Shown here one piece after another: positions 27,528 to 52,518 of a DNA stretch of 64,000 nt. The stretch's first letter is position 1; every line of letters starts with the position of its first letter. The notes beneath the pieces were generated by a model that was not told the origin of the DNA, ran no database searches, and worked only from the letters and a program-made list of their open reading frames with translations. The translations under genes were made by a program, and so were the position numbers. This DNA is from an uncultured delta proteobacterium (GTDB taxonomy: Bacteria; Myxococcota_A; Polyangia; Fen-1088), in assembly GCA_963767925.1 (NCBI GenBank), contig CAVYGB010000009.1, forward strand, positions 32,001-96,000, given 5' to 3'.

Positions 27528-30500
27528 GTGTCCGGGCAGACCTTCGTGGGGAGGGGGCGGGAGATCGAGCAGCTCAGCGAGGGCCTGACCGCCCTGGCGG
27601 GCGGACGCGGCCGCCTGTTCTGTCTGACGGGGGAGCCCGGGATCGGCAAGACGCGGCTGGCCGACGAGCTGGCCGGTCACGCGGCACGCGCCGGCGCCAC
27701 CGTGGCCTGGGGCGCCGCCTGGGACGGAGGCGACGCGCCAGCTTACTGGCCCTGGATCGAGGTGGTGCGGGCCCTGCGCCCGCTGGTGCCCGCCCCCGAC
27801 GAGCGCCTGCGCCGGGACCTGGGCCCGCTCTGGGACGATGGCGGCGCCGCGCCGGACGCCAGCCGCCCCGAGGCCGTGGTCGACCCGGCCGACCCGGCCC
27901 TGCTCGGCTTTCGCCGCTTCGATGCCCTGCGGGCGGTCCTGCACGCCGCCGCCCAGCGCGCCCCGCTGCTGGTGATCCTCGAGGATCTGCACGCCGCCGA
28001 TCGCGCGTCGCTGCTGGCCCTGCAGCTCGTGGCCCGGGCCCTGCGCACCCTGCCGGTGCTGATCGTCGCTACCCACCGGGGTAACGAGGCGGCGCGCGAC
28101 CCGGCCCTCGGCGACCTCCTGGCCCGCATCGCCCGCGAGGGGACCACCTTGCCCCTGGCCCGGCTGGGCCGGCAGGAGGTCGCCACCTTGATGGCCGACC
28201 TGCCGCCGGCGCCCGGGCGCCTTGTCGACGAGGTGTACGAGGCCTGCGGGGGCAACCCCCTCTTCCTCGTCGAGAGCCTGCGCCTGGTGCGCCGGGACGG
28301 GCGCCTGCAGGGCGTGCCGGCGGGGGTGAGCGCCCTCATCGCCGAGCGGGTCGCCCAGTTCGGGGTGGCGACCCGGGAGGCGCTCGAGGCGGCGGCGCTG
28401 CTGGGCCGCGAGCTGACCCTGCCCGTGCTCGCCGACGCCTGTGGCGCCAGCCCCGAGGAGCTGCGCGCGCGCCTGCGCCTGCCCCTGTCAGCCGGCGTCC
28501 TCGAGGAGACCGACGACGGGCGGGTCCGCTTCGCCCACGGCCTGTACCGGGAGCGCCTGCTAACCGAGCTGTCGCCCGGTCGCCGCTCGGCCCTGCACCT
28601 GCGGCTGGCCGAGGCCCTGCTGCGCTGGCGGAGCGCCGGCCACCTCGAGGCGGAAGAGCCGCTGGCCCTGCACCTGCTGGCCGCCTGCCATCCCGGGGAG
28701 GCCGACCGGATCGGGGACCCCGGGTCTCCGGCGGGCGATCCCGCGCTGGCCGTGTCCTGGGCCCTGCGGGCGGCGGCGCGGGCCCGCGCGGCGCTGGCCT
28801 TCGACCGGGCGGTCGCGCTTTACGAGGGGGCGCGGGCGGCGCTCGCCCACCTGCCGGCGGTCGAGCCCACCCGCCAGATCGATCTCGAGCTGGATCTCGC
28901 GGAGGCACTTGTCGAGGTGGGAGCGGGGGCGCGCAGCCGGGCGCTTTGCCTGGCCGCCGCCGATCGGGCGCGCGCGCTGGGTGACGGCGGGCGCCTGGCC
29001 CGGGCGGCGCTGGCCCACGGGGCCGAGCTGCGCATCGGCGTCGTCGACGGCGTCCTGGTCGGGCTGCTGTCCGAGGCGCTGGCCGCGCTGCCCGCCGACG
29101 CCGCCCGGCTGCGCGCGCGCGTCCTGGCCCGGCTGGCCGCCGCCCAGCAGCCGGCGGCGGATCCCCAGGTGCCCGTGCGGCAGGCCCGGGAGGCCATCGC
29201 GCTGGCCCGGGCCAGCGGCGACGCCGAGACCTTGCTGGCCACCCTCTACACCGCCGGGTCGGCCCTCGGCGACTACGCCTCGGCCGAGGAGCGGCTGCCG
29301 CTGTCGCGCGAGCTGGTGGCGCTGGCCCTGCCGCGCGGCGAGCTCACCATCGGGCAGCGGGCCTACGCCCGCCTTGTCGTCGATTGCCTGGAGCTGGCCG
29401 CGGTGGCCGAGGCCGAGGGGGCCATCGCCGCCCACGAGCGGCTGGGGCAGGCCCTGGGCCACCCGCGCTGGCGCTGGCGGAGCGCGCTCTTGCGATCGAT
29501 GCAGGCGCTGCTGGCCGGCCGCTGGCAAGACGCCGACGCCGCCCAGGCCGAGGCCGAGCGGCTGATCGCCGAGACCGACGACGCCAGCGCCGGCCTGACC
29601 CTGCTCATCCACCGGGCGGGGGCCCTGCGGACGCGCGAGGGCGGCCACCCCGGCCTGCTGGCGATCTCCGAGCACCCCGCCCTGGGGCAGATCGAATACA
29701 CCGCCGGCGTGGGGCCGCTGCTGCGCGCCTCGCTGCTCGCGCGCATGGGCGATCGGGCGGGCGCCCGCCGCCTGCTCGACAGCTTGCCCCCCGAGCCCGC
29801 TTTCCTCGCCGCCGATCCGGTCGCCCTGGCCTTCCTGTGCGACGCCGTCGCCCTCATCGGCGACGCCGAGCGGGCGGCCCGCCTGCTCCCCCTGCTGGCC
29901 CCCTTCGAGGGGCGCAACCTCAGCTCGGGCCTGTTCGGCATGGTCTGGGAGGGCCCGGTGGCGCACCTCGAGGGCGGCCTGCTGCTCGCGCTGGGCCAGT
30001 GGAGCGAGGCGATCGGGCCGCTCGAGGAGGCGCAGGCGGTTGTCGCCGCCATGGGGGCCCGCCCGCTGGCCGCGCGCATCGGCGGCGAGCTGGCCCGGGC
30101 TCTGTTTCAACGCGACCGCCCCGGCGATCGCAGCCGCGCGGGGGAGCTGCTCGATCGCGCGCGCGAGGAGGCCGACACGCTCGGGATGGATCACCTTGCC
30201 ACCCGCCTGGCCGAGGTGGCGGCGCTGGCGGCCGCGCCACCTGCGGAGGTGGCCCCGGTCGGGCCCGGGTCCCCGGGCGCACGCACCGGCGTGGCGGCGG
30301 GCTCCGGCGGCGCCGCGGTCGACCCGGGCGCCGCGGCCTCGACCCCCCCGACCGCCCGTCCGGTTGCGTCCGATGGGCCCGCCACCGTCGAGCTGTCGCG
30401 CGAGGGGGAGGTCTGGAAGGTGGGCTGGGCCGGCCAGGAGACGCGGCTCAAGCACTCGCGCGGCCTCGAGATCCTGGCCCAGCTCGTGAGCAACCCGGGC

Positions 30501-30905
30501 CGCGCGTTCCACGTGTTGACCCTCGGCGCTGCCGACCCGGGCGAGGTGATCGACACCGGCGACGCCGGCGAGCTTCTCGACCAGGACGCCCGCCAGGCCT
30601 ACCGCCGCCGGATCGTCGAGCTGGGCCAGGAGCTGGAGGAGGCGGCCGCCTGGGCCGACGGCGCCCGCCGCGACCGCCTGCGCGCCGAGCGCGAATTCCT
30701 CCAGGACGAGCTGGCCCGCGCCGTCGGCCAGGGCGGCCGCGCCCGCCGGGCCGGCGCCGCTGTCGAGCGCGCGCGCAGCAACGTCCAGAAGCGCCTGCGC
30801 GCCGTCATCCGCAAGCTCGCCGAGACCGCGCCCGCCCTGGCCCACCACCTCGACACCGAAATAAAAACCGGCATCCACGTCACCTACCGCCGCCCCCTGC
30901 CCTGA
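27528..30905 (+). CDS. AAA/STAND-type ATPase regulator with helical repeats and a C-terminal DNA-binding-like domain
   Basis: FVGRGREI, GEPGIGKTRL, LEDLHAAD, GGNPLFL; C-terminal KHSRGLEILAQLVSNPG...ERARSNV. Confidence 0.85.
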   Translation: MSGQTFVGRGREIEQLSEGLTALAGGRGRLFCLTGEPGIGKTRLADELAGHAARAGATVAWGAAWDGGDAPAYWPWIEVVRALRPLVPAPDERLRRDLGPLWDDGGAAPDASRPEAVVDPADPALLGFRRFDALRAVLHAAAQRAPLLVILEDLHAADRASLLALQLVARALRTLPVLIVATHRGNEAARDPALGDLLARIAREGTTLPLARLGRQEVATLMADLPPAPGRLVDEVYEACGGNPLFLVESLRLVRRDGRLQGVPAGVSALIAERVAQFGVATREALEAAALLGRELTLPVLADACGASPEELRARLRLPLSAGVLEETDDGRVRFAHGLYRERLLTELSPGRRSALHLRLAEALLRWRSAGHLEAEEPLALHLLAACHPGEADRIGDPGSPAGDPALAVSWALRAAARARAALAFDRAVALYEGARAALAHLPAVEPTRQIDLELDLAEALVEVGAGARSRALCLAAADRARALGDGGRLARAALAHGAELRIGVVDGVLVGLLSEALAALPADAARLRARVLARLAAAQQPAADPQVPVRQAREAIALARASGDAETLLATLYTAGSALGDYASAEERLPLSRELVALALPRGELTIGQRAYARLVVDCLELAAVAEAEGAIAAHERLGQALGHPRWRWRSALLRSMQALLAGRWQDADAAQAEAERLIAETDDASAGLTLLIHRAGALRTREGGHPGLLAISEHPALGQIEYTAGVGPLLRASLLARMGDRAGARRLLDSLPPEPAFLAADPVALAFLCDAVALIGDAERAARLLPLLAPFEGRNLSSGLFGMVWEGPVAHLEGGLLLALGQWSEAIGPLEEAQAVVAAMGARPLAARIGGELARALFQRDRPGDRSRAGELLDRAREEADTLGMDHLATRLAEVAALAAAPPAEVAPVGPGSPGARTGVAAGSGGAAVDPGAAASTPPTARPVASDGPATVELSREGEVWKVGWAGQETRLKHSRGLEILAQLVSNPGRAFHVLTLGAADPGEVIDTGDAGELLDQDARQAYRRRIVELGQELEEAAAWADGARRDRLRAEREFLQDELARAVGQGGRARRAGAAVERARSNVQKRLRAVIRKLAETAPALAHHLDTEIKTGIHVTYRRPLP

Positions 30906-30982
30906 CGAATACGCCCGCCGCGCGCCAGCGCCATGCCGTTCGGGCACGGGATGCGAGGTAGCTCTCGCCGCCCGCGTCCCGA

Positions 30983-31174
30983 GAATTCACCTCTGAATTC
31001 ACCTCTGAATTCACCTCTGAATTCACCTCTGAATTCACCTCTGAATTCACCTCTGAATTCACCTCTGAATTCACCTCTGAATTCACCTCTGAATTCACCT
31101 CTGAATTCACCTCTGAATTCACCTCTGAATTCACCTCTGAATTCACCTCTGAATTCACCTCTGAATTCACCTCT
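30983..31174. repeat. Perfect tandem array, 16 x 12 bp (GAATTCACCTCT)
   Basis: Units start every 12 bp from 30983 to 31163 with no mismatches; intergenic. Confidence 0.98.
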
Positions 31175-31295
31175 CCCCGCGGTCTGCCGTGGGGAGAGGT
31201 CGGCGCGTCTGCGCGCCGGGTGAGGGGCCTCCGGCGTGGCAACCGCCCCTCACCCTGCCCTCTCCCCACGGCCGCAGACGGCCGCGGGGAGAGGG
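31168..31295 (+). repeat. Composite REP-like element: unit A (31168-31227) plus inverted unit B (31246-31295)
   Basis: CACCTCTCCCCGCGG-TCTG-CCGTGGGGAGAGGT...GGGTGAGGGG, then CCCCTCACCCTGCCCTCTCCCC...GGGGAGAGGG. Confidence 0.85.
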
Positions 31296-31345
31296 TTGAC
31301 AGAGAGCTGACCGAACGGCGGGGAGCCAGCCGCCGTTCAGCACAG

Positions 31346-31391
31346 TCAGCTGTTCGATCGCTGTTCGATCAGCTGTTTCCGATCAGCTGTT
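31346..31391. repeat. Four imperfect 11-13-bp repeats duplicating the stop-codon region of the 31383-31865 gene
   Basis: TCAGCTGTTCGA TCGCTGTTCGA TCAGCTGTTTCCGA TCAGCTGTT. Confidence 0.75.
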
Positions 31392-31865
31392 GCCGGTCTT
31401 GGCCTGGCGGATGGCGGCTTGCCAGAGTTCTTCCTCCTCGCGGGCCTCCTGCACCTCGCTGGCCCGGACGGCGAGGCGCTCGAGGCGCGCGCGGATCGAG
31501 CGACCGTCGGCGATCGCGGTGGGGGCGACGGCCGGGGTGGGGCGGCGGGTGGCGCGGTCGATCCGCTCCTCCCAGGCACGCAGGTCGAAGGACGGTCGCG
31601 CCCGGTCCGCCGGGGGAAAGGGCGGGGGCAAGGAAGGGGGCAGGGGGGGCGGCGTGCCCGGCGTGCGCGGGGTCAGCGCCGCCACGAACCGATCGACCTT
31701 CGCCCGCTGGATGGCGGCGGTCCACTCGGCCTCGTCGCTGGTCGCCGCCGCGGGCGGCTTGATCGCGCTTGCGGTCACGGTCGCAATCCTGGCCGCCTCC
31801 CACTCGGCCTGGTCGTTCTGCTCGATGCGTTCGTGTCGTCGCTTCTTGTTAGTTTCGGTCTTCAT
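31383..31865 (-). CDS. Hypothetical protein with repeated E-W-x-A-A-(I) motifs
   Basis: GAGG before the ATG; AEWEAAR, AEWTAAIQRAK, ELWQAAIRQAK. Confidence 0.6.
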   Translation of the reverse strand: MKTETNKKRRHERIEQNDQAEWEAARIATVTASAIKPPAAATSDEAEWTAAIQRAKVDRFVAALTPRTPGTPPPLPPSLPPPFPPADRARPSFDLRAWEERIDRATRRPTPAVAPTAIADGRSIRARLERLAVRASEVQEAREEEELWQAAIRQAKTGNS

Positions 31866-31919: not shown

Positions 31920-32369
31920 TCACCGCCACCTGGTTGCCGCGTCGAGGGCGGCCAGCTCCTCGCCCACCCCGATCACGAAGACCGGGATGCCTCGCCGGCG
32001 GCGCTGGCCGCCAGGGTGGAGATCGCCGCGATTGTGTTCTTCTCCCCGCAGAAGGTGGGCTCGCCGTCGGTCGACAGGGCGATGGCCACCCGGCGGTTCT
32101 TGCCCCCCACCCAGGTGCGCGCGTAGTCGATGGCCCCCTGCAGCGCCGCCCCGCTCGGCGTGGTGCCGCGGGGCTGGATCGACTCGAGCGTCGTGCCGAT
32201 CTGCCCGGCGGCGCCCGGGAGCTCCGCGATCGGCACGGCCGGCACGCCGTACCGGGTCGGTGTTGCGGACCGGCGGGGGCGCGCAGGCGAGGACCGTCCC
32301 CGCGCCCAGCGCGGCGAGCGCCAGGACGACTCCTGTCGCGCGACCCCCCTCGTGCTCCCGTCCGCCCAT
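31920..32369 (-). pseudogene. vWA-domain lipoprotein remnant (internal deletion and frameshifts)
   Basis: Lipobox-like GTVLAC in one frame; TTPSGAALQGAIDYAR...LSTDGEP in a second; GIPVFVIGVG back in the first. Confidence 0.65.
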
Positions 32370-32715: not shown

Positions 32716-35460
32716 ATGAAACGAACGCGCAGTTTCGCGACGGTTGCCTTTGCCGCGGCCGTGGTTCTGGGACTCTCGACCGAAGCGCTCGCCCAGGGCG
32801 GCGACTCCGGCCAGATCGTGGGTTACGTGTTCGATCAGACCGGATCACCCATCCGCGGCGTCAAGGTCACCGCCTTCTCCGAGACCCAGATCGGCGGCAG
32901 GAAGACGGCCTACACCAACGACGAGGGCTGGTTCCGCTTCCCGCAGCTCATCCCGGGCAAGTTCCAGGTGAAGGCCGAGGCGCCCAAGCTGCAGACCGTG
33001 GTGCAGGAGAACATCTCCGTCGGCATCAACTCGCCGGCCGAGATCAACCTCGTCATGGAGGTCCTCGCCTCCAAGGTGGAGGAGGTCAAGGTCGTCGAGA
33101 AGGCGCCGGTCGTCAGCACGACCACCGCCAACGTCAAGGAGACCTTCGACGTCGACATGGTCGATTCGATGCCCCACGACAACCGGGACGTCATCTTCCA
33201 GCAGGTCACCAACTACACCGCCGGCACCATCCGCGGCGGCCGCATCCGCGGCGGCGGCGGCAGCCAGACCCTCTACATGATGGACGGGTTCAACATGCTC
33301 CGGCAGTTCCCCACCGTGAAGGCCTCCGCGGCCTACGAGATCCAGACCGCGGCCTACGGGGCAGAGAACGCCACCGCCCCCGGCGGCGTGGTCAACCTGG
33401 TCAGCCGGTCGGGCTCGAACAAGTTCGAGTTCGAGCTGGGCGGCACCGTGGACCACAGCGTCATGAACATGTTCACCGACGACGGCGACCCCAAGGAGAC
33501 GAGCCACTTCTACGTCCTCAATCCCACCGTCTCGGGGCCCATCATCAAGGACAAGCTCTGGTATTCGGCCAACGTCGAGTTCCTGCACCGCCAGACCGGC
33601 CGCGCCGGCGACGTCGAGGGCATCTTGCCCGACCCGCTGCCCGAGCTGCGCTACTGGTACAAGGGGACCATCACCCTGGCCTGGCAGGTCACCAGCCGGA
33701 GCAAGCTCCGCAGCGTGACCAACTTCGACGAGTACTGGCGGGTCAACACCGAGGGGCTGGGCACCGATCCTGACGCCCAGGGCCGCACCTTCCAGCACAA
33801 ATATTTCACCGGGCTCATCTGGGAGACCCTGCTGACCGACTGGATGGTGTTCCGCAGCCAGGCCGGCCTGATCGGCATCACCAACGACGTCCGGCCGATC
33901 TCCTGCTTCGACAGCCCCACCACCTGCGATCACACGCCGACGATCTTGCAGCGGTTCCCCCGCAACTACCGGCTGGGCAACCGGGCCGGCCGCACCGCGG
34001 ACAACGCCTACTCGCTGCAGTTCATCAACCGGCTCGAGTTCTTCCTCAACAGCAAGGTGCTCGGCGAGCACCACGTCCAGCTCAAGGACAACCTCATCAC
34101 CCAGCAGGACACCTTCCGCCGCTCGGTGCCGGGTGACACCCAGTTCGAGCTCAACGGCACCGTGCCCGAGGCCCGCATCGAGTACTTCTCCAACGACCCC
34201 CGGGTCGAGGAGGCGCGCCGGGGCTGGTTCATCACCGCCAGCAGCTCGATCCGCAACACGCTGTCCTTGTCGGACACCTGGCGGCCCACCCGCCACCTGA
34301 CCTTGACCCCCGGCCTGGCCTTCACCACGGCCTCCGCCGAGAACAGCCAGGGCGCCAACGTGATGAACGCCAACGCCCTGTCGCCGAGCCTGGCGGTGGC
34401 CTGGGACGCCACCCACGACGGCCGCACCGCCCTGCGGGCGAGCGTGAACCAGTACGTCGACGCCGACGTCAACACCATCGCCAACCACAACCTGGGCACC
34501 CAGGTGCAGCAGCGCTGCGGCTGGAACGCCACCACCCAGCTCTACGAGAACAACTGTGAATATTCGGGCGGCGCCAGCAGCGCCACCGTGGGCCTGCCCT
34601 GCGGGCCGACCGGCATCGATCCCACCGGCCGACCCTGCCGCCAGAAGCTGGTGTTGCCCACCACCTGGGAGTACACCGCCGGCGTCGAGCGGGAGGTCGT
34701 CGAGGGCGTGTCGATGGGCCTCGACGCCATCTACCGCACCTACGACAACCAGTTCGAGAAGCTGGAGACCAACCGGGTCTGGAACACGAGCGGCACCCGT
34801 CTCGAGCCGTCGGGCTCCTACCGCAACGGCCGCAACACCCAGATCTCCGACCTGGAGACGCCGGACAACGCCTACCGGCGTTACCTCGGCGCCACCCTGT
34901 CGGTGGCCAAGCGCGAGGGCAACTTCAAGCTGCGTGGCTCTTACACCTGGAGCAAGCTGAACGGCACGGTCCTCGAGGGGAACACCAACCGCCTCGGCGA
35001 CATCGGGCCGCAGGACCTGTTCCTGGAGGGCTCTCTGCCCGACGACCACCGGCACGAGATCAAGCTCAACGGCACCTACCGCGTCACCCGCTGGCTCTCG
35101 ACGGGTCTGCGCTACTCGTATTACTCGGGCCTGCCCTACAACCGCTTTTACCGGAACGACATCACGGGCGGGTACGACAACCTGCGGGCCCCGGTCGGCA
35201 TCACGCCCGGCACCAACATCAACGACCCCTACGACGACCGGGAGCTGCGCCTGCCCGACCAGTCGACGTTGAACCTGCAGCTCGCCTTCAACTTCTTGCC
35301 CCTCATCAACAAGAACATCGAGGCCTACGTCGACATCCTCAACGTCCTGGCCCAGCGGACCACCACCACCGTCGCCGAGAACGACGGCCAGGACTTCGGA
35401 ATCCAGCGCGGCCGCCAGGACCCCTTCCGCTTCCGCCTCGGGTTTCGCTACAAATACTAG
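32716..35460 (+). CDS. TonB-dependent receptor, Oar-like, with an N-terminal carboxypeptidase-regulatory-like domain
   Basis: Signal peptide ALA-Q; GQIVGYVFDQTGSPIRG; GGVVNLVSRSGSN; aromatic C-terminus FRLGFRYKY; GGAGG RBS. Confidence 0.9.
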   Translation: MKRTRSFATVAFAAAVVLGLSTEALAQGGDSGQIVGYVFDQTGSPIRGVKVTAFSETQIGGRKTAYTNDEGWFRFPQLIPGKFQVKAEAPKLQTVVQENISVGINSPAEINLVMEVLASKVEEVKVVEKAPVVSTTTANVKETFDVDMVDSMPHDNRDVIFQQVTNYTAGTIRGGRIRGGGGSQTLYMMDGFNMLRQFPTVKASAAYEIQTAAYGAENATAPGGVVNLVSRSGSNKFEFELGGTVDHSVMNMFTDDGDPKETSHFYVLNPTVSGPIIKDKLWYSANVEFLHRQTGRAGDVEGILPDPLPELRYWYKGTITLAWQVTSRSKLRSVTNFDEYWRVNTEGLGTDPDAQGRTFQHKYFTGLIWETLLTDWMVFRSQAGLIGITNDVRPISCFDSPTTCDHTPTILQRFPRNYRLGNRAGRTADNAYSLQFINRLEFFLNSKVLGEHHVQLKDNLITQQDTFRRSVPGDTQFELNGTVPEARIEYFSNDPRVEEARRGWFITASSSIRNTLSLSDTWRPTRHLTLTPGLAFTTASAENSQGANVMNANALSPSLAVAWDATHDGRTALRASVNQYVDADVNTIANHNLGTQVQQRCGWNATTQLYENNCEYSGGASSATVGLPCGPTGIDPTGRPCRQKLVLPTTWEYTAGVEREVVEGVSMGLDAIYRTYDNQFEKLETNRVWNTSGTRLEPSGSYRNGRNTQISDLETPDNAYRRYLGATLSVAKREGNFKLRGSYTWSKLNGTVLEGNTNRLGDIGPQDLFLEGSLPDDHRHEIKLNGTYRVTRWLSTGLRYSYYSGLPYNRFYRNDITGGYDNLRAPVGITPGTNINDPYDDRELRLPDQSTLNLQLAFNFLPLINKNIEAYVDILNVLAQRTTTTVAENDGQDFGIQRGRQDPFRFRLGFRYKY

Positions 35461-52453: not shown

Positions 52454-52513
52454 CACCTCTCCCCGCGGTCTGCCGGGGGGAGAGGTCGGCGCGTCTGCGC
52501 GACGGGTGAGGGG
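52454..52513 (+). repeat. REP-like unit A, second near-identical copy
   Basis: 58/60 identical to 31168-31227; lies 5 nt from the stop of the Cys-rich ORF. Confidence 0.9.
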
Positions 52514-52518
52514 TCTGG

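Follow-up and report, generated by a model that had tools for sequence, protein, structure and literature searches.

A perfect 12-bp tandem array at the foot of a REP-like hairpin element in a Polyangia genome

The DNA analysed here (the window) is a stretch of 64,000 nucleotides, positions 32001–96000 of contig C9 in a 9.34-Mb, 13-contig genome of an uncultured member of the Polyangia, which is a MAG-grade assembly with 84% completeness and 5% contamination. Between two convergent genes it contains sixteen identical copies of a 12-bp sequence that run directly into a hairpin-forming repeat element, and the question that this locus raises is how such an array came into being at the very end of the element, and whether it serves any function.

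The array and its locus

The perfect minisatellite (GAATTCACCTCT)x16.0 occupies positions 30983–31174 on the + strand, and is recognized from the sequence, TRF, the unit count, the fold and a unitig in a short-read run. TRF gives 16.0 copies of 12 bp with 100% matches, 0 indels and a score of 384, and a direct read agrees, so that the perfect 16 x 12-bp array described in an earlier reading made from the letters only (the sequence-only reading) is borne out. The start given in that reading stands as well, but not its end at 31227, since the array stops at 31174 and the longer span includes ~55 nt from the start of the adjoining element. The period is broken by an A directly 5' and a C directly 3' of the array, which therefore consists of exactly 16 units without any partial unit and without microhomology at the borders. 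The unit has a GC content of 5/12 (42%) compared to 70–72% in each contig of the genome, in agreement with its earlier description as AT-rich in a GC-rich genome, and all 16 occurrences of the 12-mer in the 9.34 Mb are located in this array. The last seven nucleotides of the array, CACCTCT (31168–31174), are at the same time the first seven of the element, and this heptamer is the sharp 5' start of the whole repeat family (see below); the array unit is thus made up of five flanking nucleotides and the first seven nucleotides of the element, reiterated, as had been proposed. An 8-bp palindrome, TGAATTCA, spans every junction between units and corresponds to the palindrome that had been noticed in each unit. 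As a single strand the array folds into eight hairpins, each formed from two units with TGAATTCA as the stem and CCTC as the loop, and with a minimum free energy of -43.4 kcal/mol (z -17). That the array is perfect shows it to be young.

The short-read soil run X1 contains a unitig of 42 nt that matches the array with 0 differences and has a depth of 44.7, while the pieces neighbouring it have depths of 2.8–6.2. The length fits a collapsed 12-bp repeat, which gives 42 = 31+12-1 nt at the k of 31 that we take Logan to use, and the depth ratio roughly implies ~10–18 copies, an estimate that rests on the same assumed k. The pieces of run X1 were placed over 31091–31500, and none of those listed spans the array. 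As the run may derive from the source sample of the assembly, the unitig rules out the gross artefact that the sequence-only reading had allowed for, but it is not proof of exactly 16 copies, a number that lies outside its reach.

The upstream gene (27528–30905, + strand, GC3 0.94) encodes a protein of 1125 aa with an AAA_16 ATPase domain, reads toward the array and has its stop codon 77 nt before it. The downstream gene (31383–31865, - strand, GC3 0.90) is convergent and encodes a protein of 160 aa without a Pfam family, and array and element together lie inside the 477-bp gap between the two genes. The 12-bp period keeps reading frames open, one ORF being found at 30933–31223 on the + strand (96 aa, (NSPL)n) and another at 30880–31269 on the - strand (129 aa, (EVNS)n), and both of them overlap the hairpins of the element or the end of the upstream gene. 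The four open frames of the array have a GC3 of 25–50%, as read from the unit, compared to 0.90–0.96 in the neighbour genes. With this low GC3, the location between convergent genes and a promoter scan of the locus that returned 0 promoter-like sites, the array is treated as non-coding. A terminator scan found one terminator-like site, at 31404–31425, outside both the array and the element. A pattern of three array units had 0 matches in the metagenome contigs searched, and in four relatives neither an orthologous locus nor synteny was found, the upstream gene having paralogue-like matches only, with 68–73% identity. No effect of the array on the neighbour genes is evident and no function is indicated; the contingency VNTR or protein-loading array suggested in the sequence-only reading finds no support at a site between convergent genes and without a promoter-like sequence.

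The adjoining element and the arrays at its 5' foot

The element adjoining the array is a dispersed repeat of 128 bp (31168–31295, + strand) that was defined by BLAST, alignment, genome search and folding. As single-stranded DNA it folds into four hairpins with -61.4 kcal/mol (z -8.1), and none of 200 shuffled sequences was as stable. Hairpin 1, the "foot" (31169–31200), has a 14-bp stem, ACCTCTCCCCGCGG/CCGTGGGGAGAGGT, and the loop TCTG, and hairpin 2 (31201–31218), supported by genome counts in addition to the fold, is CGGCGCG-TCTG-CGCGCCG with the core CGCGTCTGCGCG. Hairpin 3 (31219–31254), GGGTGAGGGGC...GCCCCTCACCC, joins the two halves of the element, and hairpin 4 (31258–31295) is the inverted counterpart of hairpin 1 with the loop CAGA and constitutes the 3' foot, at which the window copy has no array; all four are given for the + strand. 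No Rfam family scores above its gathering threshold for the element, the best match reaching 36.6 bits against 70, and the matches are to miRNA-like hairpins only.

BLAST of 31168–31300 against the own genome gives 152 HSPs, an element search of genomes has 47 matches in this one, and the 5' unit of the element (hairpins 1 and 2) is present in 55 copies in the 9.3 Mb, which make up the BLAST-defined set. A second copy of the 5' unit is located at 52454–52515 (+ strand) in the window, and comparison of the two sequences confirms the earlier observation that this near-identical copy is without an array. In an alignment of 28 long copies with their flanks the 5' border is sharp, at CACCTCT, and the 3' end falls near GGGGAGAGGGCAAAC. 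Directly before the 5' boundary 49 of the 55 copies have a T and 24 have the triplet CAT, the 5' end of the element being (CA)T-CACCTCT. This CAT was also considered as a gene start on the other strand (ATG after GGAGAGGTG), and rejected since the ORFs are mostly short or have a GC3 of 0.5–0.8. Hairpins of the CCTCKCCCC...GGGGMGAGG type are found 535 times in the genome, 265 of them on contig C2, which constitutes 24% of the genome.

In anatomy and placement the element is REP/REPIN-like. It is short and palindromic with a stable fold (z -8.1), has a high copy number (55) and is extragenic, with 49 of 51 copies outside genes according to a crude GC3-based gene map; for 35 of the 49 intergenic copies the same crude map has the 5'-side gene reading toward the foot. 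Hairpins 1 and 4 are inverted counterparts joined via GGGTGAGGGG/CCCCTCACCC pairing, as in the inverted doublets of REPs, and a true inverted doublet of the 5' unit is present in the relative G012 (locus L010). A terminal GTAG or CGTC tag is absent at both ends of the element, CGTC being found only inside hairpin 2 (GCGTCTGC). Orientation relative to the local GC skew is 17/7 and 14/13, where the skew itself is weak and noisy. In its full form the element is practically limited to this genome, and 24 of 30 relatives searched had no match, most of these being fragmented assemblies. Other genera of the family, as well as soil metagenome contigs, have related units with a TCACCTC foot, located directly 3' of stop codons. 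The core of the 5' unit was found on three metagenome contigs, none of which has a foot array, and the metagenome contig L089 carries a 2x ~175-bp duplication that includes the 5' unit.

The relation between feet and arrays was counted with a genome-wide set of 388 non-redundant TRF arrays (at least 3 copies, at least 80% identity, at least 40 bp). Outward of the 5' foot an array end lies within 5, 15 and 60 bp at 11, 14 and 20 of 51 copies respectively, while the inward control gives 0, 0 and 0 of 51. The corresponding numbers are 0, 2 and 3 of 28 for the 3' end of the element, and 7, 10 and 25 of 5000 for random positions. In the BLAST-defined set 20 of 55 copies have an array between -30 and +60 bp of the foot. 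The 5' foot is a genome-wide, one-sided hot spot for tandem arrays. The sequence-only reading had proposed recent reiterative copying at the hairpin foot and called for a list of the element copies with arrays, as the lack of any other expanded copy would speak against it; with 20 of 55 copies on that list, one-sided and far above chance, the proposal is strongly supported.

Each foot array has its own, locus-specific unit. The periods read in register are 7–49 bp, many of them 22–30 bp (the best-scoring periods of TRF go up to 246), and the copy number reaches 18 for units of 24–49 bp and 51 for a 7-bp unit. The units often start with the first nucleotides of the element and often end in CAT. 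The foot contributes seven nucleotides to the unit in the window, 6–10 at C10:1066411, 3–9 at C2:1815380, four at two loci and 0–1 at other array loci, with an overall range of 0 to ~11. On contig C5 a perfect array, (CACCTCTGCTC)x12.5, abuts a variant copy of the element that was missed by the motif searches. The sequence CCTCTG is common to three perfect short-unit arrays at or near feet (window CACCTCTGAATT, C5 CACCTCTGCTC and C2:1614363 CCTCTGGCCACGATGC) and to the hexamers at the ends of the transposase cassettes described below, which may hint at a sequence-specific activity; as a general array motif CTCTG is present in 25 of the 388 arrays, mid-range among its permutations.

A foot-like hexamer is located up to 60 nt upstream on the same strand at 25 of 55 copies, often including those without an array, whereas the opposite strand has one at 4 of 55 copies, and 464 of 5000 random 57-mers from intergenic DNA contain one. 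The array at C2:1815380 is bracketed on its distal side by a truncated foot copy. Among the 92 arrays of at least 200 bp, a CCTCKCCCC...GGGGMGAGG hairpin flanks 24 and lies inside 12. Divergence is greater at the edges of arrays than in their interiors, which agrees with what slippage predicts. The possibility that the element was inserted into a pre-existing array was rejected, as arrays are confined to the 5' side, with the element always at their end.

Y1 transposase cassettes and the origin of the array

The sequence-only reading had also proposed a search for an HUH transposase gene flanked by these elements. The genome has 11 IS200-like matches over the cut-off to PF01797 (Y1_Tnp), and with one copy of the protein as query there are 15 matches, three of them with an internal stop. 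The proteins are 225–236 aa long, contain the motifs DHVHLL (an HUH motif) and YVLMNHKKH, score 28.5 bits with Pfam Y1_Tnp (cut-off 23) and 42–45 bits with NCBIfam REP_Tyr_transpos (cut-off 80), and have 0 matches at E <= 0.01 among PDB sequences. Y1 genes bounded by arrays are thus present, but instead of the element they are flanked by inverted repeats of ~170 bp. The inverted arms around the Y1 gene in locus L008 comprise 105 nt (90% complementary) and 89 nt (92%), and the arm sequence is exclusive to the neighbourhoods of Y1 genes, where all 11 of its 11 hits are located. The 11 PF01797 matches form a single family with its own inverted repeats, and the cassettes have the layout of a TIRtron/TIRYT, with the Y1 gene within long terminal inverted repeats that are not REPs. 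A cognate RAYT flanked by the same REP (a REPtron) was not found among the 11 matches, the nearest element hairpins being 1.7–3 kb away; given a completeness of 84%, a REPtron might be missing from the assembly. The complete outer ends of the inverted repeats abut a short-period array within 1 nt in 9 of 9 cases, mostly (CTCTGY)n to the left and (CAGAGG)n to the right, with up to 61 copies.

Element and cassettes have a hairpin core in common. The sequence CGCGTCTGCGCG (CGCG-TCTG-CGCG) occurs 80 times in the genome compared to 2–14 times for eight of nine control loops, the ninth, the low-complexity CGCGCCGGCGCG, having 71 occurrences. Hairpin 2 of the element accounts for 48 of the 80, the Y1 inverted repeats for nine, and a third repeat family for 14, with nine elsewhere. 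An array is found within 110 nt on the 5' side of the core at 19 of 48 element 5' units and on the 3' side at 2 of 48; the numbers are 8 of 9 and 3 of 9 for the cassette inverted repeats, and 2 of 14 on either side for the third family. The enrichment of TCTG and CAGA as loops is modest, since in perfect 6-bp stems they are found 67 and 69 times against a class median of 15.5, with rank 28–29 of 247. Y1 homologues were found at 64 loci in Polyangia/Myxococcota MAGs, 26 of them with an array within 1.2 kb, and several of these are hexamer arrays directly upstream of the gene. In the 30 relatives there are element-like matches in six genomes and Y1 matches in seven, with both in three, the element only in three and Y1 only in four. 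The relative with most element-like matches, G012 (11 matches), has no Y1 match, and the link between element and Y1 across the 30 relatives is weak.

We consider it probable that the array is a young, non-coding and presumably neutral minisatellite that was seeded at the element boundary and expanded by slippage. One 12-bp boundary segment, consisting of the five flanking nucleotides and seven nucleotides of the element (the unpaired C and six nucleotides from the outer arm of hairpin 1), would have been duplicated once, and slipped-strand mispairing during replication would then have given 16 identical copies. In the fold neighbouring units on one strand pair as 8-bp hairpins that might stabilize slipped intermediates, and slippage should therefore be favoured by the presence of TGAATTCA at each unit junction. 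As the foot is a hot spot throughout the genome, the window array is no isolated event but belongs to a process associated with the element. Candidate causes of the hot spot are stalled forks or the processing of hairpins at the element, whose four-hairpin fold is very stable, the frequent short direct repeats of the foot directly upstream, and nicking by a Y1 enzyme. The exact 16.0 units without border microhomology mean that the first duplication is not explained by simple slippage, and the 3' foot, an equally strong hairpin yet almost free of arrays, is not what a generic hairpin-stalling model predicts. Both the missing microhomology and the spared 3' foot fit the action of a Y1 enzyme.

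A tentative alternative, to which we give a limited but real chance, is therefore that a Y1 (HUH) transposase of the TIRYT/TnpAREP kind, amplifying by cleavage, extension and rejoining, left the array as its footprint. The enzyme would bind the CGCG-TCTG-CGCG hairpin and nick the top strand near the element boundary, host polymerase would extend the 3'-OH, a second cleavage would follow a few nucleotides downstream on the new strand, and strand transfer to the first 5'-phosphotyrosine would add one unit, with repeated rounds or later slippage building the array. A scheme with a nick beside the hairpin, extension and strand transfer has been proposed for tandem BIMEs in the accessible part of Ton-Hoang et al. 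2012 (PMC3333891, Fig. 7B), where cleavage and strand transfer are also seen in vitro. With tandem REP amplification and this Y1-enzyme model already in print, as far as the accessible parts of the papers go, the "undescribed" element-associated activity suggested in the sequence-only reading was overstated. The 11 PF01797 matches with their DHVHLL and YVLMNHKKH motifs would provide the enzyme, and the arrays at 9 of 9 complete cassette ends, the 80 CGCGTCTGCGCG cores in element and cassette repeats alike, the position of the arrays mostly 5' of the core (19 of 48 and 8 of 9), borders without microhomology as expected from cut-and-join, and the hexamer arrays often found directly upstream of homologous Y1 genes in other Polyangia/Myxococcota MAGs all point in the same direction. 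However, the element does not flank any of the Y1 genes, the part in common is the 12-nt hairpin core only, the third family with this core lacks polarity (2 of 14 on each side), the two features co-occur weakly in the 30 relatives, as seen in G012 with 11 element-like matches and no Y1, and in the full set of 388 arrays CTCTG, present in 25, shows no enrichment. The foot nucleotides in the units vary from 0 to ~11, so that no single cleavage position is evident. The more specific idea that a Y1/HUH enzyme might nick at a set distance 5' of the CGCG-TCTG-CGCG hairpin, and build tandem units by extension and strand transfer both at the ends of its own cassettes and at the 5' foot of the element, is conceivable and rather doubtful.

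That the array is functional, either as sites for a dimeric DNA-binding protein (TGAATTCA every 12 bp) or, at the RNA level, as an element of the upstream gene's 3' UTR, appears very improbable to us. Each unit holds an 8-bp palindrome and also TCACCTC, which corresponds to seven nucleotides of the 16S rRNA 3' tail (GGATCACCTCCTTTCT in this genome), and as the element is co-oriented with the 5'-side gene at 35 of 49 copies on the crude gene map the array could be transcribed. However, the unit is absent from the rest of the genome and the other foot arrays all have different units, leaving no common binding site, perfect arrays point to recent origin and not to conservation, the flanking genes are not of Rep/Par type (an AAA_16 domain and no family, respectively), and homologous arrays are absent from the metagenome contigs. 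Least credible of all is an assembly artefact, or a coding sequence for tetrapeptide repeats, (NSPL)n on the + strand or (EVNS)n on the - strand. The frames left open by the 12-bp period and the MAG-grade assembly (84% complete, 5% contamination) would allow for this, but the repeat has a high-depth unitig in run X1 and with its 192 bp is shorter than any long read, and a GC3 of 25–50% against at least 0.90 in real genes, with ORFs that overlap hairpins or the end of the upstream gene, argues against coding.

Local amplification of REPs by Y1 enzymes has been modelled from in vitro data, and clear genomic footprints have been lacking so far. This genome offers ~20 independent one-sided arrays at one element boundary as well as arrays at each complete end of the Y1 cassettes, and their exact junctions are directly testable by biochemistry. 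If slippage alone is responsible, a specific hairpin foot can raise the birth of minisatellites ~150-fold over background (11/51 compared to 7/5000), which matters for genome stability, for the assembly of high-GC soil genomes and for VNTR typing. If the arrays are instead the work of a Y1 enzyme, the genome would constitute an in vivo record of the BIME amplification model, on sub-REP units, and would indicate a general route for HUH enzymes to create minisatellites.

Comparison with known systems

The window array is built like a VNTR or minisatellite, with intergenic head-to-tail units of 10–100 bp that are near-perfect and of independent origin at each locus. The MIRU-VNTRs of mycobacteria are an example of bacterial minisatellites expanded by slipped-strand mispairing, and MIRUs are located between the genes of operons, with small ORFs that overlap the stop and start codons of their neighbours. 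The window array, in contrast, is flanked by convergent genes, contains no start codon and has a hairpin element as its anchor. It differs from CRISPR in that the units are contiguous without spacers, as the sequence-only reading had rightly stated, and from iteron or centromere-like arrays in having no Rep/Par-type neighbour and a unit that is unique in the genome and absent from the metagenome contigs. Borg elements, according to the accessible part of their description (PMC9879509), also carry many perfect, recently formed and independently arisen tandem repeats in one genome; those repeats, however, run through the genes and intergenic DNA of an archaeal extrachromosomal element, and hairpin anchoring is not stated in that part of the text.

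In the TIRtron/TIRYT layout a Y1 gene has long terminal inverted repeats, instead of REPs, on its two sides (Di Nocera et al. 2013, PMC3733652, accessible part), and the Y1/HUH proteins of this genome, which are related to TnpAREP, likewise have their genes within long inverted repeats that are not REPs. They differ from TnpAREP (RAYT) proteins by staying below the REP_Tyr_transpos cut-off (42–45 compared to 80 bits), and in being a multi-copy family with 15 matches, whereas RAYTs are typically single-copy according to the available text of 10.1101/2022.05.22.493013. Arrays at the inverted-repeat ends of TIRtrons are not mentioned in the accessible parts of the TIRtron/TnpAREP papers compared, and "tandem" is used 0 times in that of Quentin et al. 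2018.

Pseudomonas is among the bacteria in which REPs are known to be reiterated in tandem together with flanking DNA (Di Nocera et al. 2013, PMC3733652), 16 ordered REPIN clusters are present in Pseudomonas fluorescens SBW25 (Bertels and Rainey 2011), and BIME-2 arrays differ between E. coli strains, all as given in the accessible parts of these sources. The element resembles the REPs and REPINs of these systems (E. coli BIME-2, the SBW25 REPIN clusters and the clusters of Di Nocera) in being a short, structured, extragenic palindrome of high copy number that is mostly located downstream of genes and forms inverted pairs, and 12 arrays of this genome contain a whole hairpin, as BIME-2 and REPIN clusters do. 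It differs in that it has no GTAG tag and that no Y1 gene flanked by it was found. Unlike BIME-2 and the ordered REPIN clusters, the window unit does not contain a whole REP, having seven nucleotides of the outer arm and five of the flank, and the units at the other foot loci combine 0–11 foot nucleotides with 7–49 nt of flank, in high copy and on one side only. The literature covered, with few subscription journals in it, yielded no account of sub-REP junction arrays, nor of arrays at the ends of TIRtrons. Apparently new, as far as the accessible parts of these papers go, are the restriction of the arrays to the 5' side, their presence at roughly one in three copies, and similar arrays at each complete end of the Y1 cassettes. 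The window array is itself a case of REP-associated tandem amplification, a known process, from which it differs by its sub-REP boundary unit.

Arrays beside Y1 transposase cassettes and copies of the element

The genome carries multiple copies of IS200-like Y1 transposase cassettes in a TIRtron layout, each gene lying between inverted repeats of about 170 bp, and a short-period array adjoins all nine of their nine complete outer ends. In most of these arrays the repeat is (CTCTGY)n at left ends and (CAGAGG)n at right ends, and the copy number reaches 61. The cassettes are found at contig C2 positions 2016987-2018501 (locus L008) and 813932-816172 (locus L004), with further sites at C9:133363-133709, C2:131440-131795, C6:53305-53335, C6:81317-81377 and C10:1014255-1014287. 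Hexamer arrays also often lie just upstream of homologous Y1 genes in other Polyangia/Myxococcota MAGs, for example at L028, L037 and L082. Two further perfect (100%) arrays accompany copies of the element. One, (CACCTCTGCTC)x12.5 at C5:32543-32679, is separated from the foot by 2 nt, and the other, (CCTCTGGCCACGATGC)x6.5 at C2:1614363-1614466, by 45 nt. The motif CCTCTG is common to both of them, to the unit of the window array and to the cassette hexamers.

A shared hairpin core, and the density of hairpins and arrays on contig C2

The genome also has a third family of dispersed repeats, GGAGGCGCGCAGCTCGCG-TCTG-CGCGAGCTTGCCAGCGCC..., at 14 loci (among them C2:608423, C2:1045910, C10:1658792 and C13:54192), and its CGCG-TCTG-CGCG hairpin core is the same as that of the element and of the cassette inverted repeats. 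Adjoining arrays show no polarity in this family, being found at 2 of the 14 loci on each side. Of the 535 hairpins of the CCTCKCCCC...GGGGMGAGG type, 265 are on contig C2 (2.26 Mb), which makes up 24% of the genome, and 53 are on C8 (3.3 Mb). Most of the large arrays are also located on C2, where there are two very long simple arrays, (CCTTCTC)x104 at 34496-35248 and (GATGGGG)x51 at 950467-950818.

Sequence shared by the foot and the 16S rRNA tail

The element foot with its commonest flank reads CATCACCTCTCC and has ATCACCTC in common with the 3' tail of the 16S rRNA of this genome, GGATCACCTCCTTTCT (window 31166-31175 and C2:1736376); TCACCTC is present in every unit of the window array. In hairpin 1 the other arm, GGGGAGAGGTG, resembles a Shine-Dalgarno sequence, and on the opposite strand it is followed by an ATG in about half of the element copies, these ATGs being mostly not gene starts.

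Other repeats in the window and in a soil metagenome

A small imperfect repeat of 11-12 bp, TCAGCTGTTCGA, with 3.8 copies and 86% matches, is located 50 nt past the 3' end of the element (window 31346-31391) and overlaps the final codons of the convergent 160-aa gene. The soil metagenome contig L089 (reverse complement, 130-365) contains a segment of about 175 bp twice in tandem. The duplicated segment takes in a relative of the 5' unit of the element together with its flank, so that the duplication is a classic 'REP plus flank' reiteration.
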